A stretch of DNA of 60,324 nucleotides, the filler included. It is 6 parts of 6 records of this genome, joined end to end, with 100 filler letters (N's around TTAATTAATTAA, not from the genome) between each part and the next. Parts side by side here need not be neighbours in the genome. Positions count along the whole stretch, not along the records: positions 43,214 to 51,435 come from SRR2962707_2068; 5 more parts are not named here. The stretch is one strand, 5' to 3'. Below the pieces are notes generated by a model. That model was not told the DNA's origin. It saw only the letters and a program-made list of their open reading frames with translations, and searched no databases. Numbering within the stretch: the first letter of the stretch is position 1; every line of letters begins with the position of its first letter. Position numbers and translations under genes: made by a program. Positions 13,583 to 60,324 of this stretch are shown here, one piece after another.

Positions 13583-13686
13583 GTGAGAAATTTCTGCTGT
13601 GCGCCTGCCCAGTAAAATGACTCACATGTCTCACCTGGCCTGGTGTAATCGATGCTCCCTTGTGTGCTGCGCGCTTGTACTGATAG
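13583..13686 (+). other. Spliceosomal intron 3 (GT-AG, 104 nt)
   Basis: AG|GTGAGA donor and TGATAG| acceptor; joins PAH-S-TYVDD in frame. Confidence 0.8.
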
Positions 13687-23985: not shown

Positions 23986-24087
23986 GTGCGTGTGCTGCCT
24001 GCAACGCTCGGCTGAGCATGACCATGTTTCAGAAGTTTGCTCTGCGAGTGGCTCTAATGTGTGTGTGTGTGTGTGTGTGTGTGCTCG
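23986..24087 (+). other. Probable intron 4, truncated by contig end
   Basis: G|GTGCGT donor followed by sequence running into a (TG)n microsatellite. Confidence 0.65.
24058..24083 (+). repeat. (TG)13 microsatellite
   Basis: Seen directly; likely cause of the assembly break. Confidence 0.95.
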
Positions 24088-24187
24088 NNNNNNNNNNNNN
24101 NNNNNNNNNNNNNNNNNNNNNNNNNNNNNNNTTAATTAATTAANNNNNNNNNNNNNNNNNNNNNNNNNNNNNNNNNNNNNNNNNNNN
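24088..24187. other. Artificial contig spacer
   Basis: 44 N + TTAATTAATTAA + 44 N. Confidence 0.98.
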
Positions 24188-35671: not shown

Positions 35672-35771
35672 NNNNNNNNNNNNNNNNNNNNNNNNNNNNN
35701 NNNNNNNNNNNNNNNTTAATTAATTAANNNNNNNNNNNNNNNNNNNNNNNNNNNNNNNNNNNNNNNNNNNN
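35672..35771. other. Artificial contig spacer
   Basis: 44 N + TTAATTAATTAA + 44 N. Confidence 0.98.
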
Positions 35772-37025: not shown

Positions 37026-37826
37026 GTGGCAGCTTTTCGAATAATTCGACATTTTTGCATCATGCTTGCAGCACTTCTGGCGGCGTTTTTTACCGATGGC
37101 GGTGCACCGGCAAAGGCGGCCGAGCCTGTTACGGTTAAAGTCGGTGCGTATGAATACGGCGTTGTTTATTATTTCGAAAATGGCAAACCAAACGGCATGG
37201 TTCCATTGCTGATCGGGCTTCTGAACGGGTTGCAGGACGACTATGAGTTTCAGCTTGTCGAAACATCGTCACGCAGACGCTATAAGGCTCTGGCGGATGG
37301 GGATGTTGATCTTCTGTTGCTCGAAAGTGCGCAATGGGACTGGCAGGACTACGCTGTGCGATTTTCTGACAAGATCGTTACAGAGAAAGATGTTTATGTA
37401 ACCCAAAGCAGCACGGCGAAAACAGATGATCCGTTTGCCGATGTCACCAATCAGTCGATCCTGTGCGTGCTGGGGTTCCATTATGGTTTTGCCAAGTTCA
37501 ACTCTGATCCGGAATTCCTGAAACAATCTTATGACGTGTTGCTGCGCTATAACGAAAAGGAAGTCCTGAACGGTGTTTTGGCCCGCGAAGCGCCAATTGG
37601 CATTGTTTCAGCAGGTTTTCTTGCCCGTGAATTGGCGGCAACGCCGGGATTGGGGGACCTTATTACCGTCGGTGTGCAACCCGACGCCATGTATGACCTT
37701 GTGTCGGTCATTGCCGATCAATCGGTCATTCCTGTTGCTGATTTTGATCAGATGATTGAAAAATTGCAGGCAACCGGCGAGGTGCAGCGCCTTTGGCAGG
37801 AACTTCATGCCAACACGTCGGGTTAA
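37026..37826 (+). CDS. Orphan periplasmic substrate-binding-like protein (SBP family 3-like)
   Basis: Signal peptide (AKA-AE); RRYKALADGDVDL and GFHYGFA motifs. Confidence 0.65.
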   Translation: MAAFRIIRHFCIMLAALLAAFFTDGGAPAKAAEPVTVKVGAYEYGVVYYFENGKPNGMVPLLIGLLNGLQDDYEFQLVETSSRRRYKALADGDVDLLLLESAQWDWQDYAVRFSDKIVTEKDVYVTQSSTAKTDDPFADVTNQSILCVLGFHYGFAKFNSDPEFLKQSYDVLLRYNEKEVLNGVLAREAPIGIVSAGFLARELAATPGLGDLITVGVQPDAMYDLVSVIADQSVIPVADFDQMIEKLQATGEVQRLWQELHANTSG

Positions 37827-43113: not shown

Positions 43114-43213
43114 NNNNNNNNNNNNNNNNNNNNNNNNNNNNNNNNNNNNNNNNNNNNTTAATTAATTAANNNNNNNNNNNNNNNNNNNNNNNNNNNNNNN
43201 NNNNNNNNNNNNN
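43114..43213. other. Artificial contig spacer
   Basis: 44 N + TTAATTAATTAA + 44 N. Confidence 0.98.
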
Positions 43214-43214
43214 T

Positions 43215-43577
43215 GTCCGCGAAGTCGAAGAAAAGAAAAAACTCCCGCCAAATCAGTTGAAAGACCGCGAAGCAGAACTCCTGCTTGGCGCTATTCCTGA
43301 CAATGCCTTTCTGATCGCCCTTGATGAGCGCGGCAAGGAATATGGCTCTATTGATTTTTCACAGAAGCTTGAAGGCTGGATGGATCAATATGCGGGCAAT
43401 ATCGCCTTTGCCATTGGCGGGGCGGACGGTCACGGCGCAGCCCTTAAATCACGCGCCAATACTCTTTGGTCGCTGGGCAAGGCCACCTGGCCGCATATGT
43501 TGGTCCGCGCCCTTATCGCCGAACAACTGTTCCGCGCACACGCCATTCAGACCAATCATCCCTATCACCGCGAGTAA
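43215..43577 (+). CDS. rlmH: 23S rRNA pseudouridine-1915 N3-methyltransferase (5' truncated)
   Basis: LDERGK, FAIGGADG, SLG..TWPH.LVR.LIAEQLFRA..I...HPYHR. Confidence 0.95.
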   Translation, partial: VREVEEKKKLPPNQLKDREAELLLGAIPDNAFLIALDERGKEYGSIDFSQKLEGWMDQYAGNIAFAIGGADGHGAALKSRANTLWSLGKATWPHMLVRALIAEQLFRAHAIQTNHPYHRE

Positions 43578-43803
43578 TCCCGGCATGTGACGACATCTGC
43601 GGTGTATATGGCGATCTTTCCTGGTCGTCACCATTGTTGTTTCCGTCATTAAGCCGCTTCAACTTGTGACCGAATGAACAAGCACCTTCTCTCGTCATTC
43701 GATTATGCTGCCTTGCAACATAACTAAAGCTTGGCTAGAGTTTCACCATAAGAAAAAAACATTCCCAGAAAAATACCCTTGGGCAGTGGTGAGGCTTTTG
43801 ACG

Positions 43804-45564
43804 ATGGAACAAACCGTTTTCGCGGTACGCGACGTAACGTATGACAATGCCAAAACATCTGCACAGGTCGACGACCTGATGCGGGGCATTACAACCGCAC
43901 TTGATTATATCGAGCATCTTTTAAAATTCGCCAATACGGCAGGCGAAAGCCAAGACAGCCTGATGCGCGAGATCGATGTTCGATCCAGCAATCTGCGCAC
44001 TGGCATTGAACAAACCGGTCGCGAAATCGATGAAAGCACCGTCACCGCAAGTGATGTGCAAAACGCCACGCGCGCGACGGTATCGGCAAAAACAAACGCC
44101 ATTCGCAGTGATCTTGAAAAGATCAGTCAGGATCTTGAAACCAAGGCAGAAGGGGCGTCTAAAGTCCTTAAAGCCATTGAAGATATCGGCAAGGGGATCA
44201 AGCTTCTTGCGCTTAATGCAACGATTGAAGCAGCCCGTGCCGGTGAACATGGACGTGGCTTTGCCGTGGTCGCCAAGGAAGTCGGCAACCTTGCGCAAAG
44301 CACCATGCAACGCACCAACGAGGCCGTCGATCTGATCGATCTTTCAGACGTGACAAAATCCCTGCGTGAAAGCATGGGCAATATCGGCAATGATCTTGAC
44401 AGTCTGGGCAGTGAAATCGAAGAGGCTCTTGGCGGCCTTAAAGACCGCTTTTCACAAATGTCGGGACGACTGGAACATATCAGCGGCCACAATCAGGTCG
44501 TTTTCGAACTGCTGGATGCCAGTAAGGAATCATCGGCCAGAACCCGCGGCAAGGTTTCCTGGGCAGAAAGCGAAATCACCAAACTTTCGCGCTGCACCAT
44601 GGATGGCGCAACCGTAACCGGTAAACTTTCGCAATTTCTGGCATCCAACCACATTCATGAAGACCCCGCCTATGACAGACTGGCCGATATCAAGGCGCGC
44701 GGCAAAATCCGGATTGCAATTGATCCGGCATTGGTTGGCGCATCTTTCCGGCCCCAAAAACACGGGCCCCTTCACGGGATCGATATCGACTATGCCGAGG
44801 CCTTTGCAAAATCCATCGGTGTTACCTGCGAGTTTGTTGAACATCCATGGGATTTGCTGACCGAACTTTTATTTGTCGGCAAAAAGGAAGGCCAACCAAC
44901 CGCCGACGTTGTCTGGTGCGCCTTGCCGCCAAGTGATTTCTACAAAGGTGTCGCCTTTTCAGACACCTACACCTATCTGAATTTTTCACTGATCCGCCGC
45001 CCGGACAACACATCGATCAACACCATTGCCGATCTTGAGGGCAAAGTATTGGGTACGGTCAATGATCCGGCTGCCCTTGCCGTTCTCGAAGATGTTGGCC
45101 TGCGCTGGGCCGATAATGAAAACAAGCCGGGCGGCATCGCAAAACTGTCAAACATGATTGCCTATGGCGACATTTCGCGTGTCCATGACGCAGTTGCCAA
45201 CGGGGCGATTGATGCCTTTGCCGGTGATCATCCGGTCTTTCACTGGGCGTCACAAAACCCGCAAAGCCCGTGGCACAAACGCCTTGAAGTCCTGCCCAAA
45301 CCGATCCTGCCCCATCCATTCTTCTATGTTGCTGCGGTTGCTGCGGACCCGGCATCTTATAACCTGTTGACCGAAATTAACGCCTTCATCGCCCAGTTCC
45401 GGACAACCCCAAAACGGGCCGAGATTGAAAAACTGTGGCAAGGTCAGGCCATCGAAAATCACCTGACGTACAAGGACGAGGCAGGAAACCTGATCGGTGC
45501 GGATGAGCTCGCCAGCAGCTATCACGCCCATTGCCGGAAATACGGGCTGGATCCTGCGATCTGA
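43804..45564 (+). CDS. Soluble methyl-accepting chemotaxis protein with C-terminal family-3 solute-binding domain
   Basis: [27 protein letters not shown] hairpin tip (about 44200-44283); no TM segment. From about 44660: [13 protein letters not shown]...GIDIDYA...FSDTY...IADLEGK. Confidence 0.88.
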
Positions 45565-45614
45565 GAGCACATAAACGGCTGGCGTGATGATGCCCTCGGC
45601 AGTATCATCACGCC

Positions 45615-46388
45615 ATGGCAGCAAACAAAAAATCCCTGCGACAACAACGCATTCTAAGTGAATTGGAACACGAACCGTCTTTACGGGTCGCGGATCTGTC
45701 TGGCCGTCTGAACGTGTCGAGCGAAACCATTCGCCGTGACTTTGACGACCTGACAGAACAGGGATTGATCAACCGTACCTATGGCGGGGCAGTCCGCCGC
45801 CAATCAAGCGAACCGGGCCTGAATGAACGCCATAAGCTCCATATTGCCGAACGCGAAATCATCGCCAAACAATCGGTCCCGATTCTGGCCGGTGCGCGCC
45901 ATATCATGATTGGGTCGGGTGCGACCACGGTTCATGTCGCCAAACGGCTTGCCATTGCCATGAATGATCTGACCGTGATTACCCATTCGTTTGGCGTAGC
46001 AACCGTTCTTGCGATTAATCCGACCATCCGCGTGATCATGGCTCCGGGCCTGTATCACGCACAGGAAGGTGCGATGCACGGCGCACAGACCATTCGTTTT
46101 TTGGAAAACTACCGCGTTGAATGGGCCATCCTTGGCGCCAGCGGCCTTGATGACGATGGCGCAAGTGATGCCTTGATCGAGGCAGCAGACGTCTATTCCG
46201 TCATGATGGAACGGGCAACCCGCGGCATGATCGTTGCCGATCACACAAAATTCAATCAGGCCTTCCCAGCCCGATATTGTGACTGGAATGCTGTTGATGT
46301 GCTGGTCTGCGATGAAAATCCGATGGGGTCGCTGGGGGCAACCATCCGGGATGCCGGATGCACGATCAAGGCCGCAAGCAAACCTTGA
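45615..46388 (+). CDS. DeoR/GlpR family transcriptional regulator
   Basis: RQQRIL...VSSETIRRD...RTYGGA; IGSGATT; VADHTKF. Confidence 0.95.
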   Translation: MAANKKSLRQQRILSELEHEPSLRVADLSGRLNVSSETIRRDFDDLTEQGLINRTYGGAVRRQSSEPGLNERHKLHIAEREIIAKQSVPILAGARHIMIGSGATTVHVAKRLAIAMNDLTVITHSFGVATVLAINPTIRVIMAPGLYHAQEGAMHGAQTIRFLENYRVEWAILGASGLDDDGASDALIEAADVYSVMMERATRGMIVADHTKFNQAFPARYCDWNAVDVLVCDENPMGSLGATIRDAGCTIKAASKP

Positions 46389-46400
46389 TTACCTTGGTGC

Positions 46401-47765
46401 CTACCCGCATTCCCGCAACGATTTCCCCAATGCTTCGATAAAGAAATCAACTTCGGACTGCCTCAGGCACAATGGCGGGCGGATTTTTAACGTCTGACCA
46501 TATTTCCCCGCCGCACCAATCAAAACGCGATGTCGACGCATGGCATTGATCACATCCCCGACCAACTGCCCGCTTGCGTCTTCCGGTGCCCCATTCGGAG
46601 ACAAATCCACGCCAAGAAACAGCCCCGCACCGCGAATATCGCTGATACGTCCGTCAATATCGGCCAGATGCTGCAATCCTTCGCGCAGGTATTTCCCGCA
46701 AATCATCGCATTCGCCAAAAGGTTCTCGTCGCGAATAACATCCAGCACGGCAAGTCCGGTTGCCGCTGCCAACGGGCTTGCGGCAAAGGTGTTGAAATAG
46801 CCGACATCTTCGCAAAATGCCGCCAGTAGTTCCGGGCGCACGGCGATCCCCGCCATGGGGAATCCATTGCCCATCGGCTTCCCCATGCTGACAATATCAG
46901 GCGTCACATCATGGCGAAGGAATCCCCAAAACGCATCCCCGGTCCGGCCAAAGCCTGGCTGCACTTCATCGGCGATAAAAAGGCCCCCGGCACGATGAAC
47001 CACCGCAACCGCCAAGCGCAAAAAACCGCGCGGGTTGGAAAACACGCCATCACTGGAAAAGATACTATCAACGATCAGGGCCGCAATCCCGTGACCGCGA
47101 TCTGAAAGAACTGCAATCGCCTTAACAATTGCATCGGCAAAACCCCCGGCGACATCATCGCCGTAAGCCAGTTTACTAGGTGCAGGCACGCACACCACAT
47201 GGTCGGGCAATTCACCACGCTTGAAGGCAGACGGCGAAATATCTGTCACCGTCGCAGTATTGCCGTGATAGGCGCATTCGGTCACGATAATGCCCCGCGC
47301 CCCTGTTCCACGCTGGGCAATCCGCAGGGCAAGATCGTTTGCTTCGCTCCCGCTGCAGGTCAGAACAACATTTTCCAAATGATCGGGGAAAGTTGCCTTT
47401 AGCCGATCAAGATAGGTTTCCGTGGTCTGATGCAGATACCGGCTGTTGATGTTAAGCCGTGCGGCCTGCTCGGCCATGGCAGAAACCACCTTTGGGTGGC
47501 AATGCCCGACGGATGGCACATTGTTATAAAAGTCCAGATAGTTGGTGCCATCAGATGCCATCATCCAGCATCCGGAAGCCGAAACCATTTCAATCGGATC
47601 ACGGTAAAATAAAACCGATGCCGCCCCGACATTCCGGGTGCGACGCATAAGAAGATCATTGCCCTGATTTGCTTTGGCGGACACCTGACCATCATAGGCA
47701 TTCATATCAAGGATGGGGCGCACGGTGGCCGTAGGTATGGTCGGTGGGGTGGCCGTTTTGCGCAT
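46401..47765 (-). CDS. Class III PLP enzyme, probable amino-alcohol O-phosphate phospho-lyase (AGXT2L/ETNPPL-like)
   Basis: YLDFYNNV..VGHCHP, SGSEANDLALR, AYHG, ADEVQPGFGRTG, MGKPMGNG. TGATG-coupled to the upstream kinase. Confidence 0.8.
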   Translation of the reverse strand: MRKTATPPTIPTATVRPILDMNAYDGQVSAKANQGNDLLMRRTRNVGAASVLFYRDPIEMVSASGCWMMASDGTNYLDFYNNVPSVGHCHPKVVSAMAEQAARLNINSRYLHQTTETYLDRLKATFPDHLENVVLTCSGSEANDLALRIAQRGTGARGIIVTECAYHGNTATVTDISPSAFKRGELPDHVVCVPAPSKLAYGDDVAGGFADAIVKAIAVLSDRGHGIAALIVDSIFSSDGVFSNPRGFLRLAVAVVHRAGGLFIADEVQPGFGRTGDAFWGFLRHDVTPDIVSMGKPMGNGFPMAGIAVRPELLAAFCEDVGYFNTFAASPLAAATGLAVLDVIRDENLLANAMICGKYLREGLQHLADIDGRISDIRGAGLFLGVDLSPNGAPEDASGQLVGDVINAMRRHRVLIGAAGKYGQTLKIRPPLCLRQSEVDFFIEALGKSLRECG

Positions 47766-48763
47766 CACACACCTTCAGCCGAAAGGAAGCTTTCTGCCAT
47801 CTGCAGCGTTCCGGTCGTAAAGCCGGTCCCCATTTCCTGTGCCGTCGGTGTTTCCGGATGGCTGGCGATCCAGGCGGTTAACAACAACCGGCGCAGCATG
47901 ACGAAGCTATCAAGCATCGCCGTGTCTGCCGATAGAAATGGTGCTTCGGTGCGATACCCTTCTACCCATGCTTCTTTTAAGGCCGGAATAATAGGATCAA
48001 GTTCGATAAAGCTGATGGCTGCGGCAAAGTCATAGCCAAACCAGCCAAAGCCACAATCATCAAAATCAATCACACCCAACCGGTTTCCATCGACCAACAA
48101 ATTGGCCAATCGTAAATCCGCATGGATCAAGCCAAACCGGTCCTTATCCATCCCGAATGCCATAAGCTTATGCTCAAGGTGATGACAAACCCGTTCCAAC
48201 AAGGCTGTGCTGGCACCATCCAAACCCGGTGCCGCCCGCCAGTCTCCCCAATGGGGTGTCGCGCCAAGGGTCGTGTCAAAGGTCCAGCTTTTGCGGACAA
48301 AGTTAACTGATCGTGCCCATTGCCGCGCATGACCATGAAGTCGCGCACTGATCGCGCCCAGCTTAAAGAACCCGTCAACCAGCGCGTCCCCCGCCGATGG
48401 CTCCACGCCTGCCATAAAGTCAAATGCAACGACATGGCGACTGACCCCGTCCTGATCAAACTCGGCCACCAAACTTCCGTCGCTGCGCAAACGGGGTTTT
48501 GGGGTGTGGACAATCTCGCTGGCACGAAGGGCGTTAATCCATGCCAGTTCGGATTCAATTTCAGCCCGCGTGTGATAGCCCGGACGATGCACCCGCAAGA
48601 TCAGCTTCCCACCGGTCGCGGGATCGGTTGCAAGAAAAGTCGCATTTTCCGAGACGGTCAGAAGCGACACATCGGCATCCTTCCCCATGCCCCATCCCGG
48701 CAAAACCGACATGGCACCGGTCTTTAGGACACCAATCATGTTGTCATCGTAAATGCCACCCAA
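47765..48763 (-). CDS. APH/choline-kinase-like phosphotransferase, probable aminopropanol kinase
   Basis: SENATF, LRVHRPGYH, GLIHADLRLANLLV, IDFDDCGFGW. AAGGAG RBS 7 nt before TTG 48763. Confidence 0.82.
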   Translation of the reverse strand: MGGIYDDNMIGVLKTGAMSVLPGWGMGKDADVSLLTVSENATFLATDPATGGKLILRVHRPGYHTRAEIESELAWINALRASEIVHTPKPRLRSDGSLVAEFDQDGVSRHVVAFDFMAGVEPSAGDALVDGFFKLGAISARLHGHARQWARSVNFVRKSWTFDTTLGATPHWGDWRAAPGLDGASTALLERVCHHLEHKLMAFGMDKDRFGLIHADLRLANLLVDGNRLGVIDFDDCGFGWFGYDFAAAISFIELDPIIPALKEAWVEGYRTEAPFLSADTAMLDSFVMLRRLLLTAWIASHPETPTAQEMGTGFTTGTLQMAESFLSAEGV

Positions 48764-48928
48764 CAGTGATCTCCTTTGGCCCGATACCAGCATCATCCAG
48801 GCAACGCTTCACCAAACCCGAACAAGGCGGGAAACAACAGTTGCGCCGGTTTCAATTCATTCAATTCCCGCCGAACTCTGTGGTTCAGCGCGTTATCTTG
48901 TGAATATTGCGCCTTAAAATATGTAACT

Positions 48929-48947
48929 TGCAACATTTTTTGTTGCA
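48929..48947. promoter_or_regulatory. Putative operator TGCAACA-N5-TGTTGCA in the divergent kinase/SDR promoter region
   Basis: Perfect 7-bp inverted repeat in an AT-rich intergenic region. Confidence 0.55.
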
Positions 48948-49071
48948 TCACGGCAAAAATGACCCAATCATCGGGAAAACATAACGCACTGCATAATCAG
49001 GAAGACCGCCAACAAGTTGAACCGCATCAATGCCGTTCCTGTTGCTGGATGGTTTCACGAAAGGATCGACC

Positions 49072-49851
49072 ATGCTGACTTCAATTTCCGGGAAAAGTGT
49101 CATCGTCACAGGTGGCTCAAAGGGTATTGGCAAAGGTATCGCCAGTGTCTTCGCCAGCAAGGGGGCGAAAGTCATGGTAGCCGCCCGCACGGAACCGGAT
49201 GCTGCGGCTACGGTCGAAGAAATCCGCGCCAACGGCGGTACGGCCGATATGGTTCTGTGCGATGTGTCTGATTGGGATCAGGTTAAAGCCATGGCGGAAT
49301 ACACCGCCAAAACATTTGGCGGCATCGATATCCTGTGCGCCAATGCCGGTATCTTCCCACAGGTCAAAATGGTCGACATGGCGGCAGATGACTGGGACCA
49401 GGTCATGTCAACCAACCTTAAAAGCAGCTTTTTGTGCGTAAAGGCCTGCATTCCGTATTTTGAAAAATCGGGCAAAGGCCGGGTTGTCATCACGTCATCC
49501 ATCACCGGCCCGGTCACCGGTTATCCGGGATGGGCCCATTATGGGGCGTCCAAGGCAGGCCAGCTTGGCTTTATCCGCACAGCGGCTATGGAACTCGCGC
49601 GCTATAACACAACGATTAATGCCGTCATGCCGGGCAATATCATGACCGAAGGTCTGGCTGATCTGGGACAGAGTTATCTGAAGTCAATGGCAAGCTCGAT
49701 CCCGCTTAAACGATTGGGCAGCGTCGAAGACATCGCCAATGCGGCCCTGTTCTTTGCATCCGATGAAGCCGCCTATATCACCGGTCAGTCAATCGTTGTT
49801 GATGGCGGTCAGATCTTGCCAGAATCACTTGATGCGATTGGGGAGATTTAA
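49072..49851 (+). CDS. SDR oxidoreductase, 1-amino-2-propanol dehydrogenase/aminoacetone reductase-like
   Basis: TGGSKGIG, CANAGIFP, TSSITGPVTGYPGWAHYGASKAGQLGF.RTAAMELA, PGNIMTEG, DGGQILPES. Confidence 0.82.
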   Translation: MLTSISGKSVIVTGGSKGIGKGIASVFASKGAKVMVAARTEPDAAATVEEIRANGGTADMVLCDVSDWDQVKAMAEYTAKTFGGIDILCANAGIFPQVKMVDMAADDWDQVMSTNLKSSFLCVKACIPYFEKSGKGRVVITSSITGPVTGYPGWAHYGASKAGQLGFIRTAAMELARYNTTINAVMPGNIMTEGLADLGQSYLKSMASSIPLKRLGSVEDIANAALFFASDEAAYITGQSIVVDGGQILPESLDAIGEI

Positions 49852-49948
49852 CACGTTAAACGTGTTCAGATTGGAAATGATCAATTAAAATTTGCACGAC
49901 TCATCCCCTTTGGATACAGATAGATACAGTGTCCAAAAGGGGAATTTA

Positions 49949-50608
49949 ATGAGATACAATTGTCTTAAGTTTATCGCGATTTTCGGCTGTGCAGCTTTGC
50001 TTAGCGCCTGTGCTGTTTCAAGAAGTGTTGTTCATATTGAACAGAGCGAGACAATAGAAAACCCGGCAGAAGGCCCAGAGGTGCGGATCGTCGAAGTTAA
50101 CGACAATCGTCAATTCGAAATTGATCCGCGAAGCCCTGATATCCCGTCACTTGCGAACGACGAAATTGATGATGCTTCAGTTACTGAGCGCGCTTATGGC
50201 CGCAAGCGAAACACCTATGGCATGGCCCTGGGTGACGTCTTGACCCCAGAAGGCAAAACCGTTTCGGACGCTATCGCGAAAACTGTCGAAAACGGCTTCC
50301 AAGCCGCCGGTTATCGTGTCTTAACGCCTGAAGACAACAATTACGCCAATGCAAAGGATGTCAATGTCGATGTCACCGAATTCTGGTCCTGGCTGGAACC
50401 GGGATGGGAAATAACTGTTCATAATCGCAGTGACATAACCCTGACAGCTGACCGCGCTTTATTCACAGACCCAATCAGAATTAAAGCAGAGTCTTCCCAA
50501 CCCATGCAGATGGTTCTGGACAGTGACTGGCAAGCCAGTGCGATCAAAGCCCTGCAAGAAGTTCGCAAAAAAATCACAGATGCGCTTCTTGCTTTGCCCA
50601 AGCCTTAA
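49949..50608 (+). CDS. Lipoprotein (YajG-like)
   Basis: Lipobox LSAC after a hydrophobic leader; V.D.R, GRKRNTYGMALG. Confidence 0.7.
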   Translation: MRYNCLKFIAIFGCAALLSACAVSRSVVHIEQSETIENPAEGPEVRIVEVNDNRQFEIDPRSPDIPSLANDEIDDASVTERAYGRKRNTYGMALGDVLTPEGKTVSDAIAKTVENGFQAAGYRVLTPEDNNYANAKDVNVDVTEFWSWLEPGWEITVHNRSDITLTADRALFTDPIRIKAESSQPMQMVLDSDWQASAIKALQEVRKKITDALLALPKP

Positions 50609-50626
50609 CCTTGCTCTGAAAAATAG

Positions 50627-50653
50627 AAAACCGCGCTGAACCAGCGCGGTTTT
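50627..50653. terminator. Bidirectional intrinsic terminator
   Basis: AAAACCGCGCTG-AAC-CAGCGCGGTTTT between convergent genes. Confidence 0.85.
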
Positions 50654-50655
50654 TA

Positions 50656-51192
50656 TTATTCGTGCAGTCCGTACTGGCTGCGAACGACCCCGGAGTTATA
50701 CCGTTCGGAGGCCAGTAATCTGGGTTTTATCCCACCGGCATCGCGCCCAAACAGGGATATCCCATCGCCCAGAACTTCGGGGATTGTGAAAATATCAAGT
50801 TGATCGGCAAAGCCACCAAACAGGAACTGCGTCACCACACTCCCGCCGCCAACAACCCAGATATCACCATTGCCATTTCGGCTATCGCGCAACTGATCAA
50901 CCAGTTCGATGATACTACCGCCATAGGACTCGGTATTGGCCGGTCGATTTTCTGGAAGTTCGCGTGATGTCAAAACGATCGTGCGGCGGGCCTCATAGGG
51001 CCAGTCGCCAAATTCCATGACCTGATCAAAGGTATTCCTGCCAATGATCAATGTCCCGACGGAGTCCAGAAAATCCTCAAAGCCAAACTCGGCCGGATCA
51101 TATTCATCCAACCAGTCCACCGCGCCATTGGCGCGCGCAATGAAGCCATCCAAACTGACCGCGATATAAATGCGAAACAGCTTTTTGCTCAT
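50656..51192 (-). CDS. Dihydrofolate reductase-like / RibD C-terminal family protein
   Basis: YIAVSLDGFIA, IGRNTF, DIWVVGGG, P.VLGDGI.LF. Confidence 0.88.
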   Translation of the reverse strand: MSKKLFRIYIAVSLDGFIARANGAVDWLDEYDPAEFGFEDFLDSVGTLIIGRNTFDQVMEFGDWPYEARRTIVLTSRELPENRPANTESYGGSIIELVDQLRDSRNGNGDIWVVGGGSVVTQFLFGGFADQLDIFTIPEVLGDGISLFGRDAGGIKPRLLASERYNSGVVRSQYGLHE

Positions 51193-51435
51193 ATCTATGT
51201 CCAACCTTGGGTGGGGTCTTTGCCCCATTTTTGCGCGATTAAGTATAACAGATTGCCATACACGCGTGACAATAAACCAAACACCCGGCCAGACGACCCC
51301 GTTGCAAAAACGCTAAATTTCCCGGTTTTCCGCCCTATTCTTACGAGGTGGGTCTAACACTCCACCACGTTGACATTGACGGCAAGACCACCCTGACTGG
51401 TTTCTTTGTACTTACTTTGCATGTCGAGTCCCGTC

Positions 51436-51535
51436 NNNNNNNNNNNNNNNNNNNNNNNNNNNNNNNNNNNNNNNNNNNNTTAATTAATTAANNNNNNNNN
51501 NNNNNNNNNNNNNNNNNNNNNNNNNNNNNNNNNNN
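51436..51535. other. Artificial contig spacer
   Basis: 44 N + TTAATTAATTAA + 44 N. Confidence 0.98.
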
Positions 51536-51595
51536 TCTGTTGGTGAAAACACACAACAGTGGCGCAGGACGGAGGAACACCTACAAGGGCTGGAT

Positions 51596-52066
51596 TTATT
51601 CCTCCGATAAATCTACTTTTATAATCTCCCATTTACAGTTTTTTAGAACTAAATCATAGTGCCCAACAATACCCTCATCTATGTATTCATATTCTACATA
51701 AGCTATCTTTTCATCTCTTTTCACTTCCCTAAACTTTAATAGATTATTAGCTCCTGTATTCGATAAAGAGTTAAATGTTAAGCTATCTGTAATTACAAAT
51801 TTCAAACCCCCAACCACATTACCTCCATCTAAGACAAAATCATTCTCTAGCACAATTATTTGATTTTTACTATCGTCATCTACTAGTTGTCTTAATTCCG
51901 TCGAGTTAATCACAGCAAAAATCAATTGTCGCTCAATTTCAATTTCATCACATTGGTGCTCTTCATTTTCATCTGATGATGATGTTTTAACACAACCCTG
52001 AATGATTGACAAAAAGAGTAACAGATTTATCATTATTGTATTCCTTCCACTAAGTATTTGATTCAT
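51596..52066 (-). CDS. Lipoprotein, putative immunity protein for the Rhs toxin
   Basis: Small, acidic, AT-rich ORF starting 14 nt after the Rhs stop; hydrophobic leader with IQGC lipobox. Confidence 0.65.
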   Translation of the reverse strand: MNQILSGRNTIMINLLLFLSIIQGCVKTSSSDENEEHQCDEIEIERQLIFAVINSTELRQLVDDDSKNQIIVLENDFVLDGGNVVGGLKFVITDSLTFNSLSNTGANNLLKFREVKRDEKIAYVEYEYIDEGIVGHYDLVLKNCKWEIIKVDLSEE

Positions 52067-52080
52067 ATCAAAAAATCTTC

Positions 52081-55000
52081 TTATCTATCTTGTGGCCAAT
52101 TTGTCTTTTTCTTCTTTTTCTTCTTTTTCTTGTTATTCCCTCCACTGCTATTTTGATTTGATGAACTGTTAGGAGTTACTATTATTGACAGTAAAGAATA
52201 ACCATTCCCTGAGAAAGTATAACCCTGATTCATCAAGTAATTAGCAAGGACATTTTTGGCATTTTTACCAGAAATATCTTGACCATATGCTGCAACTTCG
52301 AACTTTGTACCTTCTTCTCCAGATTGATCAAGTCCATCCAAATTGTCACCATAATGAACATACTCATGAAGAATAGTTACAGCTAATCTGAATAGCAACG
52401 CCTCTTTCTCAAATCCACTTGCAGCTTCCATTTGCTTGACATATTTCTCATTCAGGTATAGTATATTACCAAACTGAGGAGTGTTAGCTCCAATATAACG
52501 CCCTATACTTTCACCACTAGCGGATTTAAAAGGCCTACCATTTCCATCAGTATTGGAAACTACAATTTTTGGACCTTGTCCCCACTGAAGGTCCTGCATT
52601 ATCTGCTGCTTACTCATTTCTCCATATTTAGATAATGCATTCATTATTCTACTATTATTACCTATCCCTTGGATTGTATTCTTTAGGTAATTAGCCAAAG
52701 TCTTATAAAGCTTCGCTGTTTTTGGATCCATTTCATACTCACCATTGAAATCCCAATATCTAATTGGATTATCAAATCCATATCTGTAAGGAGACCAATT
52801 ACTAAAAGCATGCGTTTGTGGATCAACACTAAACCACCTACCTATCTCAGGTTGATACATTCTAGCTCCATAATCCAACCATCCTGTTTCCTCCTGCAGT
52901 TCCTTACCATTATAGAGGTAGTTCTGGGCTGTTGAAGCGGTTCTGACAGTCTCATTGAAAGTAAGTCCGAAGGGGTAGTAATCCTGCGTGCTCACTACAT
53001 TCGTCTTGCCATGATATACCGTGAAGTCATCGAAGTGAACGTCTAGGGGTTCCTGATTTTCATTACTTAAGTAAGCCAGAATATAACCCTCCCTATCCGG
53101 TCTAATGCTGTTAATACTTATTGTTTCGTGAGCGTTGATCCCCAAAGCAGCTGTAGAAACCTGTTGGAAGCCACCCGAGATAAAAGACATTTCAGAATCA
53201 AAGAATAGGTAATTCAGATAGGCATGTGGTCCTGAGTTACTGGTACTTTTATCGTCCATGGCAGAACTACCTAACGCTTCGCTAAACTGTGAAAGTGATC
53301 CATTAACACCACCTTCAATACCACTGCCATAGTTAATATCAAAAGTTGTAAACAAAGATGAAATAGCCGATCCATACATAAAAGTATATCCGGTTGGTGC
53401 ACTAGTATAATTAGCGGTAACAGATAGATCAAGCGTATCGCCCTTATTTACACTAAGAAATATCATTGCACCTATTTGATCACTTTGAAGTCTTTCCACC
53501 TCATCACCACCGGGAGTGGTGTTTGCACTGGAGCTGGGGAACCTATGCAGGTTTTGCCAACCATTGCTTTCACCCGTTTCAAATGTTTCCACCATGGTAT
53601 AGTTCTCCGGAGTAGTTGAGAGGGTCACCCTCACATTTCCAAGATGATCTTTCAAATGATATTGATAATCCCAGTTGGAATCTTTTGGAATAATTCTACC
53701 TTCCTCATGTTGGATCAAAGCGATAGCTCCGTTCTCATAGATGAACTCTCCTACATAATCTGTAGTCTTGGCCAGGCTACCATCCTCAAATACTTTTTGT
53801 CTTAGCTTAATTCCTCCAGCGTCATAGAGGTACTCGATGTAGTTCTGAGCATCGAAAGTGACTTTAATTGGTAGGTTCAAGTGGTTGTAATCTATATCGG
53901 TAATGCCTTTGTTTGCATCCGCGATCATATTCCCATTAGAATCATAGAAATACTCGTCTGAACTGGCTCCTTCAGAATCTATCTCACTAAAACCATGATC
54001 GTTCGTCTCATTATCAGCCACACGTGTTAATTGATTTCCTTCATAGGTATAAGAAAGATCATCTGTCAGGTCTTCTCCAAAATTTCTTCGCAGGCTCATG
54101 ATATTGCCGTTTAAATCATATTGAATAGTACCTCCTGTATCAGTACCATATGCCGAATAATAGTCGTTTCGATTAAGTCCGCTATACACTGCCTTTTTCA
54201 ACCGGTTTAACCCATCGTACTGGAAGGTGTAAGTATGATCATCCTCTATTGTAGAAGCCGGTGATATCCAATTCATCTGACCAATGTTCCCATTATAATT
54301 ACCTGACTGATCGTATTGTAGTTCCATACCAAACAGATCAGACGGATCATTGAGACTTGTCCCGCTGTTTATATTAGTTAGCCAACCCCTTATGTTATAA
54401 TCATAATCAAGTAGTTGTTCCCCCTCATGAAGATTTTTTTGAACTAATTCGCCTAGTTCATTGTAAGAATTTTCCGAAATAAGTTTCTCTCCATTTGAAT
54501 CAATTTCATGATATGTTTTCAATAATCTATTGATGTTATCATATATGTAACGTCTTTTTATGGTAATCGAATTACTGCCATCCGAATGGACAGTTTGTTG
54601 CTTGCGAACACTTCCTCCAAAATCATATTGACTGCTTGTTCTGTCAATTCCACCAAGGTGATTTTCTGAAACCACCTGAATGGGTCTATACTCATCATCA
54701 TAATAAATAATGGTAGTAATGAAGTCATTTCCTTCCCCCCTAACAAGGGATCCGGTGACTTGACCTTTAACACTTGAATTGTAAGCCGGTACGATATGAA
54801 ATGCATCAGAGGTGGTGTATACCTGCTGAAATGTAGTGCCACTTAAATCAGATCCGGATACAAAGTCGTACGTATCGTAGTACGATACAGAAAAGATATT
54901 CCCTATAGTGCCACCGCTTCCTGTAACAAAAGGATAGGCAGTATTATTATAACCATTAGTTCCTGATCCGTCAAAGGTCAGAAAGCGATTGGCCGAACCA

Positions 55001-56766
55001 AAGCTCATAATATGTGATTGCATGGCGCTATGAGAACGACTGTCAATTATAAGGCCTGTAATCACTGGTCTGTCAAGTGCATCATAAGTAGTGTAGAGCC
55101 ATTGGTTGTTTGCACGCTGATTGCCATCCTGTGTGAGTACCAGTCGATTCCATTGATCATAAACCATATAAACCGGCTCTGCCCCAGGGACTTGCTTTTC
55201 AATCAATCTTCCCCGTTCATCATATAGATATTTGAAGGCTCTTATATCCAGAAAACCGGAGGTAAGTTCCTCTATTGGTTTGATGACAGCACCCGGAGAA
55301 AGAGTTACTCCAGCAGGAACAGTAATAGTTGCATTTGGCGAATAAGCGATGGTCGCCAAAGACTCTGAAGTGGTAAGGGTGTAATCTTCATTTTTAATTT
55401 CAAAATTGCCACTAGTCAAAGCCTGAAATTCATCATTAATCGCTTTACTTGCCTCCGGAGGAATCACTGCCCTTAATCTATTCATATCATCATAGACATA
55501 ATAAGTCTCAGCTGAAGTGCCTGGCGATACAAATGACTTCTTACAAAGCACTCGTCCTCTTTTGTCAGAGAATTCCTGAGACTCATTTCCATCCTCATCA
55601 ATTATGACATTTTTGAAAAGTTCCCCTTGGGAATATGATCCATTTCGGATAATGTTTCCTGAAAGATCAATAATAAACTGGGCTACCTCCCCAGTAGAAT
55701 TGATTTCATATGATAGACCAATTGGTTTATCCCCGCCTAGCAGCCCCCATGCTGAACCCGGAGCATATGATTCTGTTACTCGATTTAATGGTGATGATTC
55801 ATAAATATTTTGAGAAAAAGCAAATCCACCTTCAGATTCACCCTTAAGATTTCGATAAAACATATCTGCACTTCCTTCAAAATCTTCATCTCTGGCTATT
55901 GCATTTGGATCATAGATTTGATCATAAGCATTGCTGGCGTAGGGTAAATAATTTTTAGTTACCATCCCATATTCGTCATATGCATATGGCTTGATCAGGG
56001 ATTGTCCTAAAGGAGATTGCTCGACACCAATTTTTTGCTTAACCCTCCCCAATCCATCATAATATGAAACCGCTTGTGAACGATTGGAAATCGAGGCATT
56101 AATCAAATTCGTTAGTGAGTTTAGACCTGCAACACGACTTGTGTACTCATCTGTTCTATTCTGATCAATTAAATCAGCGTATGAATAGGCATTTATTTTC
56201 TTTGAGTGATGTGTATAACCTTGTTTATAACCAACCACATAATAAACTCCTGTAGCTGGATTATCTATAAATGAACTGACTTGTCCCGATACTGCCACTT
56301 CTTGACCAGTACTCAGCACTTGATACCATTGAAACGAGTCATAGTATGTCCCACCGCCATCTACATCATTGGTTACTTCAAGACGTATTGATGTAGGAGT
56401 TGTCATACTTAGTGCTATCTCAGGGAGTTTTCCGAAGTATTTCACTTCTCCAAATAGTTCAAGTTCATAATTTAGTCCCAAGGGTTGATGAATGAGGTGA
56501 AATGTGCCTGGTGCTGCAAACTGCCCAGTCCATTCATCGCTTTCTGTTGGGGGAACATTGTTAAGAATAGGGCCAGAATAAATCCAATCCCCAAATGTCT
56601 GTTCCTCTACACCATTGGTATATTCTACGTGGGCTGTATAGGTGGCTGAACCACCTACATATACGACAGTTGGACCCTGCATCCACTTATTTTCAACTTG
56701 AGCATGAAGTGAAAAGGCTAAGCAAAAGCAAATTCCAATTAATGTTTTTGTAACTATATTTTTCAT
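52081..56766 (-). CDS. Secreted Rhs-repeat polymorphic toxin (DUF6443-like + RHS core) with C-terminal HEXXH metallopeptidase (Tox-MPTase3-like)
   Basis: Signal peptide; YYDGLGR..Q (DUF6443-like); YD repeats; DHLGNVR, DYYPFG, YNGKELQ..TGWLDYGARMY...GRW.SVDP, NPIRYWDFNG; tip TILHEYVHYGD...GEEG..FE...YG. Confidence 0.88.
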   Translation of the reverse strand: MKNIVTKTLIGICFCLAFSLHAQVENKWMQGPTVVYVGGSATYTAHVEYTNGVEEQTFGDWIYSGPILNNVPPTESDEWTGQFAAPGTFHLIHQPLGLNYELELFGEVKYFGKLPEIALSMTTPTSIRLEVTNDVDGGGTYYDSFQWYQVLSTGQEVAVSGQVSSFIDNPATGVYYVVGYKQGYTHHSKKINAYSYADLIDQNRTDEYTSRVAGLNSLTNLINASISNRSQAVSYYDGLGRVKQKIGVEQSPLGQSLIKPYAYDEYGMVTKNYLPYASNAYDQIYDPNAIARDEDFEGSADMFYRNLKGESEGGFAFSQNIYESSPLNRVTESYAPGSAWGLLGGDKPIGLSYEINSTGEVAQFIIDLSGNIIRNGSYSQGELFKNVIIDEDGNESQEFSDKRGRVLCKKSFVSPGTSAETYYVYDDMNRLRAVIPPEASKAINDEFQALTSGNFEIKNEDYTLTTSESLATIAYSPNATITVPAGVTLSPGAVIKPIEELTSGFLDIRAFKYLYDERGRLIEKQVPGAEPVYMVYDQWNRLVLTQDGNQRANNQWLYTTYDALDRPVITGLIIDSRSHSAMQSHIMSFGSANRFLTFDGSGTNGYNNTAYPFVTGSGGTIGNIFSVSYYDTYDFVSGSDLSGTTFQQVYTTSDAFHIVPAYNSSVKGQVTGSLVRGEGNDFITTIIYYDDEYRPIQVVSENHLGGIDRTSSQYDFGGSVRKQQTVHSDGSNSITIKRRYIYDNINRLLKTYHEIDSNGEKLISENSYNELGELVQKNLHEGEQLLDYDYNIRGWLTNINSGTSLNDPSDLFGMELQYDQSGNYNGNIGQMNWISPASTIEDDHTYTFQYDGLNRLKKAVYSGLNRNDYYSAYGTDTGGTIQYDLNGNIMSLRRNFGEDLTDDLSYTYEGNQLTRVADNETNDHGFSEIDSEGASSDEYFYDSNGNMIADANKGITDIDYNHLNLPIKVTFDAQNYIEYLYDAGGIKLRQKVFEDGSLAKTTDYVGEFIYENGAIALIQHEEGRIIPKDSNWDYQYHLKDHLGNVRVTLSTTPENYTMVETFETGESNGWQNLHRFPSSSANTTPGGDEVERLQSDQIGAMIFLSVNKGDTLDLSVTANYTSAPTGYTFMYGSAISSLFTTFDINYGSGIEGGVNGSLSQFSEALGSSAMDDKSTSNSGPHAYLNYLFFDSEMSFISGGFQQVSTAALGINAHETISINSIRPDREGYILAYLSNENQEPLDVHFDDFTVYHGKTNVVSTQDYYPFGLTFNETVRTASTAQNYLYNGKELQEETGWLDYGARMYQPEIGRWFSVDPQTHAFSNWSPYRYGFDNPIRYWDFNGEYEMDPKTAKLYKTLANYLKNTIQGIGNNSRIMNALSKYGEMSKQQIMQDLQWGQGPKIVVSNTDGNGRPFKSASGESIGRYIGANTPQFGNILYLNEKYVKQMEAASGFEKEALLFRLAVTILHEYVHYGDNLDGLDQSGEEGTKFEVAAYGQDISGKNAKNVLANYLMNQGYTFSGNGYSLLSIIVTPNSSSNQNSSGGNNKKKKKKKKKTNWPQDR
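52105..52131 (-). repeat. 9-nt tandem repeat AAGAAAAAG x3 encoding nine lysines
   Basis: Seen directly at the toxin C-terminus. Confidence 0.9.
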
Positions 56767-56797
56767 TTTATCAGGTTCTGATTTTATTGGATCGCTT

Positions 56798-59700
56798 TTA
56801 ATTACCAGAGATATATTTATACTTGAATCCCTTCAATACATTACCATTGTGATCTTTGATGACCTGAACTCTCCCGTAATTATCATACTCGTAATTGATG
56901 GTTCTATTGTTCACATCGCTGGAGGACGTCATTCCTAAAATTGGCTCATAGTCATATTCTGTTACTTGTGCATCAGATGGATAAATCAAGATTTCATCAA
57001 CATTTATTGGAGTAGTAGAATTGTTGGTTAGTGTTATCCTTCCCTGAGTTGTCAATTCTACCTGATGACTCTTTTTCTGGAAGTTAGATGTGACTGAAAA
57101 AGTAGTACCGGCCACATCCAAATTACCTGAACCACTAGCATAGAATTCGACGACATATTTTCCCGGGGGCACTATTGGGCTACTACAATAACTACCTTGT
57201 TGGGTCAACTCGCCATAACCCCAACCTTTTGGTGTAGTGGCATCGCTTTCGATCGATAAGCCATTTTTTAGCCAGTCTTGATCATCGGCATACTCTTCAA
57301 ATCCATTGTAGAATACATTATTAATTGGAGCATTTACCAAAACGAAAATTGGACTCTCCTGCTGGTAGTTATAGACAAAACTGACAGGTAAACCATTGGT
57401 ACTTTTTTGTTCGATTCTTTGACCAAAAACATTATGCTGGTATTCCATTTGTTTATACATGTATGTTGAATTGGGAGAAAACTGGCCATTGCTAACTGAT
57501 CCTACACTAAAACTGGATTCACTGACAGGCGAACTGGATTTGAAACTATAAAGCTGATCAATATCATAATATCCGTCAAAATCACCATAGTTAAGAAATT
57601 GAGCATTCAACACAGATGTATTTCCATTTTCAGAAATTAAACTCATGATCTCGACAGGTTCTGTTATCCGGAAATCAGAGATCATTGAATTCATTACCGA
57701 TGTTCGCTCTGTTACAGAGTAATCTGAGGTATATCTTACTTGGTTAATAAGTAGCTCACCTCTACTTCCAGCTGTTGAAATAGAACTTAACTGATGATGA
57801 TCAGGTAATACATTTACACCATCCCCTATTACCAAATATTTATCGTCAATGACATAATTATAATCCAGGTGGTCATGGGTATAATCGGTGGTTTTAGAAA
57901 CAGTCAGTCCATTATTGTAAAACTCTTCTGTCCGGCTATTTAGAAACGTAAACCCGGTGTAAATGGAATATGGCGTATAATAGATATAAAAATGATCATA
58001 ATTTTTACGCACTGCATCGAAATCCTGTTCATCAATAACTTGTCTATAGTAGGTTTTGAATTCATTGATAACTTTCTTCAATGGCACTCCAGATTCGTTA
58101 TAATATGTAATGGACTCGGGTTGATTGAAATTAATATATGGTTTCACAACACATTGTGGAAAAGCATCAAGATATGATCCATAAGAGAGGTAGCTATCAA
58201 ATCCCATTTCGTTTCCAGCATCTCCTTCATATCGATACACAGTCGAACCTTTGCCAACCTGTTTTTCAGTTACCTCAACATGCATTACTCGATTATGGGA
58301 TGCATCATTATTGATTGGGTTTGAGAACACCACATTATCAGCAGCCATGTCGCCTTGACATATTTCACCAGCAACAGATTGATGGCCTGCATCTGCTATA
58401 GTTCTAACATCATATTCAGGAGATCCCAATAACAATTGCCCATCTCCATAATCGAATTCCTTTTGAATTTCCGGTCCATCCTTAGGGTCGTAAATCAATT
58501 TTTTAATTACCAATCCACCTGCAGGCCTATTGGCATACTCATAGGTTGCATTAACAGTATTTAATTCACTATAATATGCGTAATCAGAATCGTAATAGAA
58601 CTTGGATACACCTCCTGTTGGATACTTAACTTCATCTAGAATAAATGCTTTTTTTGCATTTGTGTTTACCGACCTGTTCCCTCTTAATTCTAAGGTATAA
58701 TTAGTCGATGTTGTCTTTCGTAGATAGGAAGGAATTAGAGTTGTATTTCCATCGGCACCATTGTAGAATCCCCAATGGTCTGAGGCTTGAGTAAGGCGTG
58801 GTGGTATCCCATAACTTAGATTATTATACTTGTTATAACTAAACTCATAGGATCCAACCTTCGAATTTCCTCCGTCATACATTTCAACCGCATCCAATCT
58901 AAGTCGCTTAAATGAGTATGCCGGAACGTTGGGATAGTTGTTATTGCTATTCGAACCTTGAAAATAGCTTGTGACCAAATGGAACTTCCTTACGTGGAAA
59001 CCAGAGTTAAAGCTTAGTCGATCTATAATTTTAATATTCTCAAGTGATCTGGAACTCCCGTCTATATCACTGCGAAAACTACCATATTCAAACTCAACAA
59101 TTTCCTTCTTTGTTATAATTCGCTGTATTGGCAAAATGGACTGGACACTCGATTTTGTGGAAATATTTAACGACCCAGTGTTATTATAATGATTAACCAA
59201 TTTTTGGCCTCCATAAATTTCTTCCTCAATATTTTCATAGGAGGAAGCATACTCAAATAAAATTGTATCAGATTTTGAAGTTACAATCTCATCAAGCAGC
59301 CAAGATGAAGTCGTGGACTCTGAAGAATACACCCCATCGCTCGTGTGATAGTCTACCCGAGATTTCTCCTCTCTACGAAAATAGAATTTTGTTCCATCTG
59401 ACTTAATCACAACAAATTCGTCAAACATTGTACCTTGACTGATATCTTGGATTAAAACATCCTGTTCTGGAATTAGATGGATATTTGCATCATAATCATG
59501 AACGAATTTTCCGGAAATGCCACCGCATTCAAAGTAGAATAAGTCAGGTTCCGTATCCCACCAAAAAGACCCTACATCAAATATTGTATTTGCACAGGTT
59601 GAATTCTGACCACCAAGACCCAAGGTTCCCGCATTTGTATGTTCTAAAACTTTACTTTTGGTCTGCGGTATGTTATTGCAAACTAAATAACCCGTGTTAC

Positions 59701-60076: not shown

Positions 60077-60080
60077 TTTC

Positions 60081-60324
60081 TTAGTTGGTTAACTTTTTTC
60101 TCATTTCATTAATCATAATTCCTTGCTTCTCAATCAACTTCTGCTGGTTTGTGACTTGTAAAGTTAGGTTGTGTTGCTGTTGACTGTTAGCTTTCAACTG
60201 TTGGCTAGTCGTCATTAGCTCTTGACGGAGTACGTTATTCTCATTTTTAACTTGAATCAAATATAAGGTCAACTCTTCCACTTTTTTCAACAACAACATA
60301 TTCATCTCTCCCAGCTGCACGCCA
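60081..60324 (-). CDS. C-terminal end of a Bacteroidota tail-fibre/peptidase-S74-chaperone-like coiled-coil protein (truncated)
   Basis: GVQLGEMNMLLLKKVEELTLYLI motif followed by a heptad coiled coil. Confidence 0.7.
   Translation of the reverse strand, partial: GVQLGEMNMLLLKKVEELTLYLIQVKNENNVLRQELMTTSQQLKANSQQQHNLTLQVTNQQKLIEKQGIMINEMRKKLTN

Follow-up and report, generated by a model that had tools for sequence, protein, structure and literature searches.

Can the enzymes of the Rhodococcus/Mycobacterium microcompartment (RMM) pathway, which would turn aminoacetone into propionaldehyde, serve a bacterium that encloses them in no shell? This question is raised by a locus found in a stretch of assembled DNA of 60,324 nucleotides, referred to in full as the window. 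Positions 43804 to 49851 of the window encode a short-chain dehydrogenase/reductase (SDR), an APH-type kinase, a class-III enzyme dependent on pyridoxal phosphate (PLP), a DeoR-family regulator and a soluble chemoreceptor. The comparisons described below make it probable that the three enzymes form, in a Thalassospira, a cytosolic pathway without a shell that acts on aminoacetone and 1-amino-2-propanol. What supports it is homology, the order of the genes, the conservation of the cassette as a whole and the enrichment of a palindrome, from which likely substrates, a direction of flux, a cofactor, a regulator site and an effector may be proposed.

Searches for open reading frames (ORFs) and domains recovered all five genes, in the order and on the strands given to them by a reading made earlier from the letters alone (the sequence-only reading). 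The SDR gene (49072..49851, plus strand) is divergent from the kinase gene (47765..48763, minus strand), next to which the gene of the PLP enzyme lies on the same strand (46401..47768, minus), and the deoR gene (45615..46388, plus strand) is convergent with the latter. The TGA stop codon of the kinase gene (47767-47765) overlaps the start codon of the lyase gene, either GTG 47768 or ATG 47765, within GTGTGATG. Translational coupling of the two genes, as proposed earlier, is therefore plausible. Although the SDR frame is open from 49030, translation likely starts at ATG 49072, which has AAAGGA 6 nt upstream and matches the start of the solved chain 6ci8. The kinase frame reaches back to 48796; its likely start is TTG 48763, which is preceded by AAGGAG and gives a protein of 332 aa, homologues having 331-333 aa.

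The SDR (Pfam adh_short) is predicted to be an aminoacetone reductase or 1-amino-2-propanol dehydrogenase. Its best solved relatives are 6ci8 (319 bits, E 2e-94) and 6ci9 (315 bits), which we take to be the M. smegmatis (S)-1-amino-2-propanol dehydrogenase of Mallette and Kimber, our search having returned no paper that confirms it. The identity with 6ci8 is about 58% (151 of 261 alignment columns, counted by hand). Two more mycobacterial-type SDR chains score 290 and 287 bits, and the best solved chain with a FabG name scores 186 bits. Thus the protein sides with 6ci8 and 6ci9 and not with true FabG, in line with the sequence-only reading. The motifs TGGSKGIG, NAG, SSITG and YGASK are found at residues 13, 91, 142 and 157, respectively (numbered from ATG 49072), so that the protein has the TGxxxGxG cofactor motif and the N-S-Y-K catalytic residues of a classical SDR. 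The longer motifs quoted earlier are also present and, apart from their x positions, match 6ci8 letter for letter. In annotation, the FabG label should be avoided for this protein.

The kinase (Pfam APH), a predicted (S)-1-amino-2-propanol kinase, aligns with 6ef6 over residues 26-342, nearly its full length, with 280 bits and an E-value of 2.4e-82. The relevant passage of PMC7314540 names 6ef6 an aminopropanol kinase. The other solved relatives are amicoumacin kinases only, at E 5e-15 and weaker. The catalytic loop HADLRLAN (HxDxxxxN) is at residue 225 and the metal-binding DFDD at residue 244. The protein should be called neither an aminoglycoside kinase nor a Ser/Thr kinase. The third enzyme, of the class-III PLP fold (Pfam Aminotran_3), is a predicted O-phospho-amino-alcohol phospho-lyase. 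Its closest solved relatives are 5g4i (336 bits, E 3e-99) and the human ethanolamine-phosphate phospho-lyase ETNPPL, 6tor (319 bits, E 5e-94), against at most 173 bits for transaminase, decarboxylase and racemase chains, the next family standing at E 1e-49. The passage of PMC6750192 that concerns it identifies 5g4i as the phospholyase of Arthrobacter aurescens TC1. DEVQ is found at residue 267 and GKP, with the PLP lysine, at residue 296. NCBIfam holds no specific name for the SDR, the kinase or the lyase; in a fusion family, the lyase corresponds to the C-terminal half only. Each of the three enzymes has its catalytic motifs intact, and their best solved relatives lie at E 1e-82 to 1e-99, which bears out the closeness to the RMM enzymes that had been recognized from the letters.

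From these resemblances, the following scheme may be envisaged. The SDR would reduce aminoacetone to 1-amino-2-propanol, or would run in the reverse direction, probably with NADP(H). The APH-type kinase would phosphorylate the hydroxyl group of 1-amino-2-propanol, and the class-III PLP enzyme would eliminate phosphate and ammonia to give propionaldehyde, to be passed on to an unlinked aldehyde dehydrogenase. The kinase and the lyase would be made as a translationally coupled pair, and the SDR would be read divergently from a shared control region. The DeoR protein encoded downstream would most likely repress both promoters through the sequence TGCAACA-N5-TGTTGCA. As with other regulators of its family, a phosphorylated intermediate, for instance aminopropanol O-phosphate, would probably bring about its release.

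If the three enzymes work together, their genes should be expected to travel together. Relatives of the kinase are numerous: of 8,000 candidates scored, 5,893 reach E 1e-20 or better. Thalassospira supplies the closest, and the next, at about 60% identity, come from many Alpha- and Gammaproteobacteria. A scan with one genome per species gave at least 593 genome stretches encoding a kinase relative, the best 80 of which were searched with the proteins of the window. Among loci with at least 1.3 kb downstream, the lyase gene directly follows the kinase gene in 62 of 73, and a kinase relative without the lyase occurs in the 11 other assessable loci. At least 7.5 kb upstream and 4 kb downstream are available in 54 loci (hereafter full-flank loci), and homologues were counted in them at 55% identity or more for the SDR and 45% or more for DeoR. 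The kinase-lyase pair is present in 47 of these 54 loci. The SDR accompanies it in 43, a DeoR homologue being detected in 34 of the latter. Hence the cassette is not rare. Its loci come from Alpha-, Gamma- and Deltaproteobacteria and from other phyla.

The arrangement of the cassette varies. The SDR gene is divergent from and adjacent to the kinase gene in 17 loci, as in the window, and lies 3-7.5 kb upstream of it in 22 loci (about 22/54). The gap between the two genes is filled in these 22 loci by an ATP-binding cassette (ABC) importer of the polyamine/aminoethylphosphonate type, with an SBP_bac_8 binding protein, two permeases and a PotA/PhnT2-like ATPase. The binding protein has no NCBIfam match and the resemblance to PotA/PhnT2 is confined to the ATPase; the position of the importer would fit uptake of small amines. 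In 21 of 25 longer kinase homologues, the kinase is fused to a class-III PLP domain in a protein of about 772 aa (Methylophaga, Marinomonas and others). No shell or aldehyde dehydrogenase gene was found among the gene clusters that recur in at least 4 of the 80 loci, singleton ORFs of the other loci not being scanned. An 875-aa protein, P0265, carries the bacterial microcompartment (BMC) domain PF00936 and is similar, at 55% identity, to 27% of the kinase; either a shell-kinase fusion or an artefact of gene calling may account for it.

The control of the cassette may be considered from the side of the DeoR protein (Pfam HTH_DeoR, 60.7 bits; DeoRC, 129.1 bits). A perfect palindrome, TGCAACA-N5-TGTTGCA, is located at 48929..48947 between the divergent kinase and SDR genes, upstream of both, at 166 nt from the kinase start and 125 nt from the SDR start. 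It is the sole match without mismatch in the window; with up to 3 mismatches, 5 matches are found against 4.66 expected, the intergenic one alone being exact. At this tolerance, the window holds no copy upstream of the receptor gene or of deoR. A relaxed form of the palindrome was then scanned in 79 loci, promoter regions being defined as the 170 nt upstream of the kinase or SDR gene. Of 42 DeoR-positive loci, 23 have it in a promoter region, as compared with 3 of 37 loci where no DeoR was detected, and 2 of these 3 are short contigs on which DeoR is not assessable. Promoter regions hold 27 sites in 20.6 kb (1.31 per kb), as compared with 31 in 1,303 kb elsewhere (0.024 per kb). The palindrome is therefore enriched 55-fold in promoter regions and its presence tracks that of DeoR. 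The positive loci belong to Thalassospira, Roseospira, Azospirillaceae, Methylophaga, Marinomonas, Amphritea and Xanthobacter-type genomes. We infer from this distribution that the palindrome is the DeoR operator. Since DeoR-family sensors commonly bind phosphorylated ligands, the product of the kinase, aminopropanol O-phosphate, would by analogy be the most likely inducer.

Whether the pathway is shell-free has to be judged on the native surroundings of the locus, which the window shows only in part. The window is a pseudomolecule in which at least six contigs follow one another, linked by five identical spacers, each composed of 44 N, TTAATTAATTAA and 44 N (9528-9627, 24088-24187, 35672-35771, 43114-43213 and 51436-51535), and gene neighbourhoods that span these spacers are not real. 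The locus occupies its own contig of 8,222 nt (43214-51435). Its left boundary is the spacer 43114..43213, nucleotide similarity to the Thalassospira loci L001-L004 beginning at 43214, and its right boundary is the spacer 51436..51535, the similarity stopping at 51435. The flanks present in the window were consequently rejected as native context: the DapE, TetR and GST genes to the left and the stretch of 38% G+C to the right belong to other contigs. The statement that both flanks of the locus are visible here is not upheld in that form, and native flanks were drawn from L001, the Thalassospira lucentensis Mv1 chromosome, and L002, a Thalassospira sp. genome. The contig is colinear with L002 over all its 8,222 bases at 95.6% nucleotide identity and with L001 at 93.7%. 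The host is a marine Thalassospira (Alphaproteobacteria, Rhodospirillales), which gives a genus to the alphaproteobacterial origin already suggested.

The only true neighbours present in the window are a partial rlmH, a lipoprotein gene and a RibD_C-domain gene. The contig starts inside rlmH (43214..43577, plus strand, 3′ part only; Pfam SPOUT_MTase, NCBIfam RlmH), which forms the native left flank; in a tblastn comparison with L001 RlmH, residues 51-170 only align, beginning straight after the spacer. At its 3′ end, the contig extends past the RibD_C gene. Between the SDR and RibD_C genes stands the gene of a predicted lipoprotein of 238 aa (49892..50608, plus strand), which has a hydrophobic N-terminus and no Pfam or NCBIfam match. 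It is also found in L002 (8189-8905) and is missing from that position in L001, L003 and L004; it is probably a variable neighbour and not a part of the system. Further out in L001 and L002, one side carries genes for a polysaccharide deacetylase, S41 and M23 peptidases, phosphoglycerate mutase, serine dehydratase and the RibD_C protein, and the other side rlmH, rsfS, a nadD-like gene, a probable proA and an ABC exporter. No BMC shell gene (PF00936 or PF03319) was found among the ORFs of the contig or within 10 kb on either side in L001 and L002, the whole genome not being scanned. Similarly, no catabolic aldehyde dehydrogenase and no importer or transporter gene was found on the contig or within 10 kb on either side in the T. 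lucentensis chromosome. The sole nearby Aldedh match is weak (63 bits), lies in the rlmH-rsfS-nadD neighbourhood of L001 and is probably proA. Over these distances, the earlier statement that shell, aldehyde dehydrogenase and transporter genes are wanting holds.

How does this locus compare with known systems? As listed in the passages of PMC4207490 that describe it, the RMM1 locus contains shell proteins, an aldehyde dehydrogenase, a short-chain dehydrogenase, a phosphotransferase, an aminotransferase, an amino-acid permease, hydrolases and a GntR regulator. The organelle is proposed to convert aminoacetone to propionyl-CoA, or to use 1-amino-2-propanol (PMC8156839, PMC6787980). The Thalassospira locus shares with the RMM of Mycobacterium smegmatis and Rhodococcus three highly similar enzymes, the short-chain dehydrogenase, the APH-type aminopropanol kinase and the class-III PLP phospholyase, and, as far as these sources go, the chemistry predicted from aminoacetone to propionaldehyde. 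In contrast, it has no BMC shell genes (BMC-H or BMC-P), no CoA-acylating aldehyde dehydrogenase and no amino-acid permease, a DeoR regulator takes the place of GntR, and the host is a proteobacterium. These absences concern the locus, the whole genome not being scanned. Since the three pathway enzymes are shared and nothing else is, the locus may be described as encoding an RMM-like pathway without being an RMM locus.

Pathways of this kind without a shell have precedents. In their 2018 article in J Biol Chem, Mallette and Kimber are said to have found the kinase widely distributed among Actinobacteria, Proteobacteria and Firmicutes, often in linkage with the phospholyase or fused to it, and with as well as without a microcompartment. 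The locus would belong among these non-encapsulated pairs and fusions of Proteobacteria. The DeoR regulator, the palindrome, the linked SDR and the variant with an ABC importer go beyond these pairs, although some of these features may be in print. Earlier still, in the 1970s, Jones and Turner reportedly described in Pseudomonas a shell-free route with an amino-alcohol kinase and a phospho-lyase leading to propionaldehyde or acetaldehyde, to which no genes were assigned; our literature search did not find this classical pathway. With ETNPPL and the A. aurescens TC1 phospholyase, the lyase shares the fold, the PLP lysine and DEVQ. Unlike these two enzymes, which are known for phosphoethanolamine, it is accompanied by a kinase and an SDR that point to the aminopropanol series. 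A search for descriptions of the proteobacterial or Thalassospira cassette returned microcompartment papers only, from which it should not be concluded that nothing is in print. Altogether, the shell-free form is of an already known kind; what may be new is the DeoR protein together with the palindrome, the variant with an importer and, in Thalassospira alone, the neighbouring receptor.

The receptor encoded at the left of the locus (43804..45564, plus strand; alternative start at 43705) is a methyl-accepting chemotaxis protein with the signalling hairpin at the N-terminus (MCPsignal, residues 103-227; PF00015, 87.8 bits, the cut-off being 34.6) and, at the C-terminus, a sensor-like domain of the SBP_bac_3 family (residues 302-547). 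No transmembrane segment (highest 19-residue Kyte-Doolittle mean 1.19) and no HAMP match was found in it. In the absence of a hydrophobic segment, its description as cytoplasmic, already given by the sequence-only reading, appears reasonable. In an AlphaFold (AF2) model with 24 family members (mean pLDDT 82.3, pTM 0.70), long helices would extend up to residue 264, followed by a compact alpha/beta domain. This modelled domain can be superposed on proteins that bind arginine, glutamine, lysine and related amino acids, with TM-scores, relative to the target, of 0.74-0.84 for the two-lobe binders and 17-24% identity; a search with its sequence gives weak matches to amino-acid binders. Both domains are common to 106 of the 120 best homologues listed. 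The family is represented in Thalassospira, Marinomonas, Rhodospirillum, Magnetospirillum, Amphritea, Oceanospirillum, Dongia, Roseibium, Pseudomonas and Denitratisoma. Across 24 aligned members, the tip region of the hairpin is invariant; the best conserved part is the sensor domain, with invariant ALPP, NDP, RW and D-F-D-P-W-A. The Helicobacter receptor TlpD is also soluble, with the signalling hairpin first and the sensor last. Unlike the zinc-binding domain of TlpD, the sensor is here a complete two-lobe SBP_bac_3 fold. No description of a soluble receptor with a C-terminal SBP_bac_3 sensor was found in a literature search. A second, tandem receptor paralogue, about 71% identical to that of the window, is present in L003 (13192-17002) and L004 (13303-16989). 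The L004 copy beside deoR aligns in two pieces, which suggests a frameshift or a sequencing error. On another contig of the window, a 266-aa ORF (37026-37826) matches SBP_bac_3 weakly (21.9 bits, below the cut-off) and has no evident relation to the sensor domain of the receptor.

Between the stop codon of the receptor gene and the ATG of deoR, a hairpin with a perfect stem of 11 bp and a loop of 12 nt is found (45581..45614, plus strand). It ends exactly at the deoR start codon, with no T-run after it and no evident ribosome-binding site, and an 80-nt stretch containing it folds at -29 kcal/mol. L001, L002 and L003 retain the hairpin, L003 with one compensatory pair, and in L004 it is degraded. 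Termination of the receptor transcript or control of deoR translation would be possible functions. Over 43400-50700, a sigma-70 scan gave 1 promoter-like site against 5.9 expected, and a scan for intrinsic terminators 14 terminator-like sites against 8.9 expected. No convincing promoter or terminator was found by these scans inside the locus, save a bidirectional terminator after the lipoprotein gene. At gathering score, no Rfam match, either to a riboswitch such as cobalamin or to another known RNA, was found anywhere in the window.

How well does an aminopropanol pathway stand up to other readings of the same genes? Several points weigh against it. The depositors of 6ci8 and 6ci9 labelled both '3-oxoacyl-ACP reductase', a FabG-type name, and the SDR exceeds the cut-off of the FabG-named NCBIfam model NF004202 (413.7 bits against 333). 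The closest solved lyases, 5g4i and 6tor, are presumably phosphoethanolamine enzymes, and homology alone therefore leaves the substrate unfixed. The Thalassospira locus has neither an importer that would supply the substrate nor an aldehyde dehydrogenase that would take up the aldehyde. Finally, 19 of the 42 DeoR-positive loci have no palindrome in the regions scanned. It may be imagined that the cassette handles ethanolamine instead: the kinase would form phosphoethanolamine, the lyase would release acetaldehyde, ammonia and phosphate, and the SDR would be occupied in a side reaction. The nearly equal closeness of the lyase to the human and Arthrobacter enzymes speaks for this possibility, as does the only moderate specificity reported for the M. 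smegmatis kinase. However, the SDR accompanies the kinase and the lyase in 43 of the 47 full-flank loci that have the pair, a step for which ethanolamine has no need, and the sole strong solved relative of the kinase is an aminopropanol kinase, so that we hold an ethanolamine pathway to be unlikely. It is very improbable that a different hydroxy-amine, 5-hydroxylysine or a homoserine-like compound for example, is the substrate of the kinase and the lyase, and that the SDR is an unrelated reductase of the FabG type. Here, the FabG-named model passed by the SDR and the weak resemblance of the kinase to NCBIfam homoserine kinase models are met by the low scores of the latter (30 and 21 bits, far under the cut-offs of 271 and 256), by solved FabG chains reaching at most 186 bits where 6ci8 reaches 319, and by the neighbours of the SDR, which are the kinase and the lyase and not fab genes. 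Thus, the cytosolic aminoacetone and 1-amino-2-propanol pathway is preferred as the function of the three enzymes.

A different matter is whether the receptor is a working part of this pathway. In such a model, its SBP-like domain would bind a pathway amine in the cytoplasm (aminoacetone, aminopropanol or the phosphate ester) and would steer swimming towards sources according to the flux through the cassette. In the window, as in each of the four Thalassospira-type loci, the receptor gene does precede deoR by 50 nt on the same strand, and two of these loci (L003 and L004) hold the tandem paralogue as well. Moreover, the protein is soluble, the fold of its sensor is that of binders of basic and polar amino acids, and the usual carboxylate-binding motif of such binders seems to be replaced, albeit in a weak alignment. 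On the other hand, the receptor gene adjoins the cassette in only 4 of the 54 full-flank loci, all of the Thalassospira type and of one lineage, so that the adjacency may go back to one event. Marinomonas and Amphritea possess the cassette as well as receptors of this family, yet not side by side within 10 kb. The receptor gene has no palindrome upstream, a strong hairpin stands between it and deoR, and the sensor domain is highly conserved across genera in any context. A role of the receptor in reading the pathway must consequently be viewed as doubtful, with rather little chance of being right, and the protein is best read as a genus-specific neighbour of the cassette with a candidate role only. 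Wiring of the locus to chemotaxis, as put forward by the sequence-only reading, is a possibility only: the gene association is seen for the kinase, the lyase and the SDR in 43/54 loci, and for the adjacent receptor in 4/54. If the receptor did report on the pathway, this would amount to metabolism-linked taxis to amino alcohols.

Some features of other contigs of the window may be recorded. The contig 51536-60324 has 38-39% G+C, as compared with about 55% elsewhere, and encodes on the minus strand a 1561-aa RHS-repeat protein with DUF6443 and a C-terminal Tox-MPTase3 domain (52081-56766), and a 1092-aa SpvB-like protein (56798-60076). Its base composition suggests that it comes from another organism in the assembly bin or from a foreign island. 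The contig 9628-24087 has a poly-T run at its beginning and a (TG)n run at its end. It carries a 3495-aa ORF with a SPRY domain, listed at 13652-24139 and thus running into the spacer, the neighbours of which contain UBA-like and WWE domains; these domains are typical of eukaryotes.

The enzymes of the RMM are also carried, shell-free, by many Proteobacteria and some other phyla. This distribution bears on why some bacteria encapsulate the step that forms propionaldehyde and others do not. The cassette offers a testable model of regulation, in which a DeoR repressor would act on a defined palindrome and respond to an inducer that is likely phosphorylated, and the ABC importer found in part of the loci may define the natural substrate. 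The soluble receptors with a binding-protein sensor form an uncharacterised family that deserves study, whether or not they prove to be tied to this pathway.

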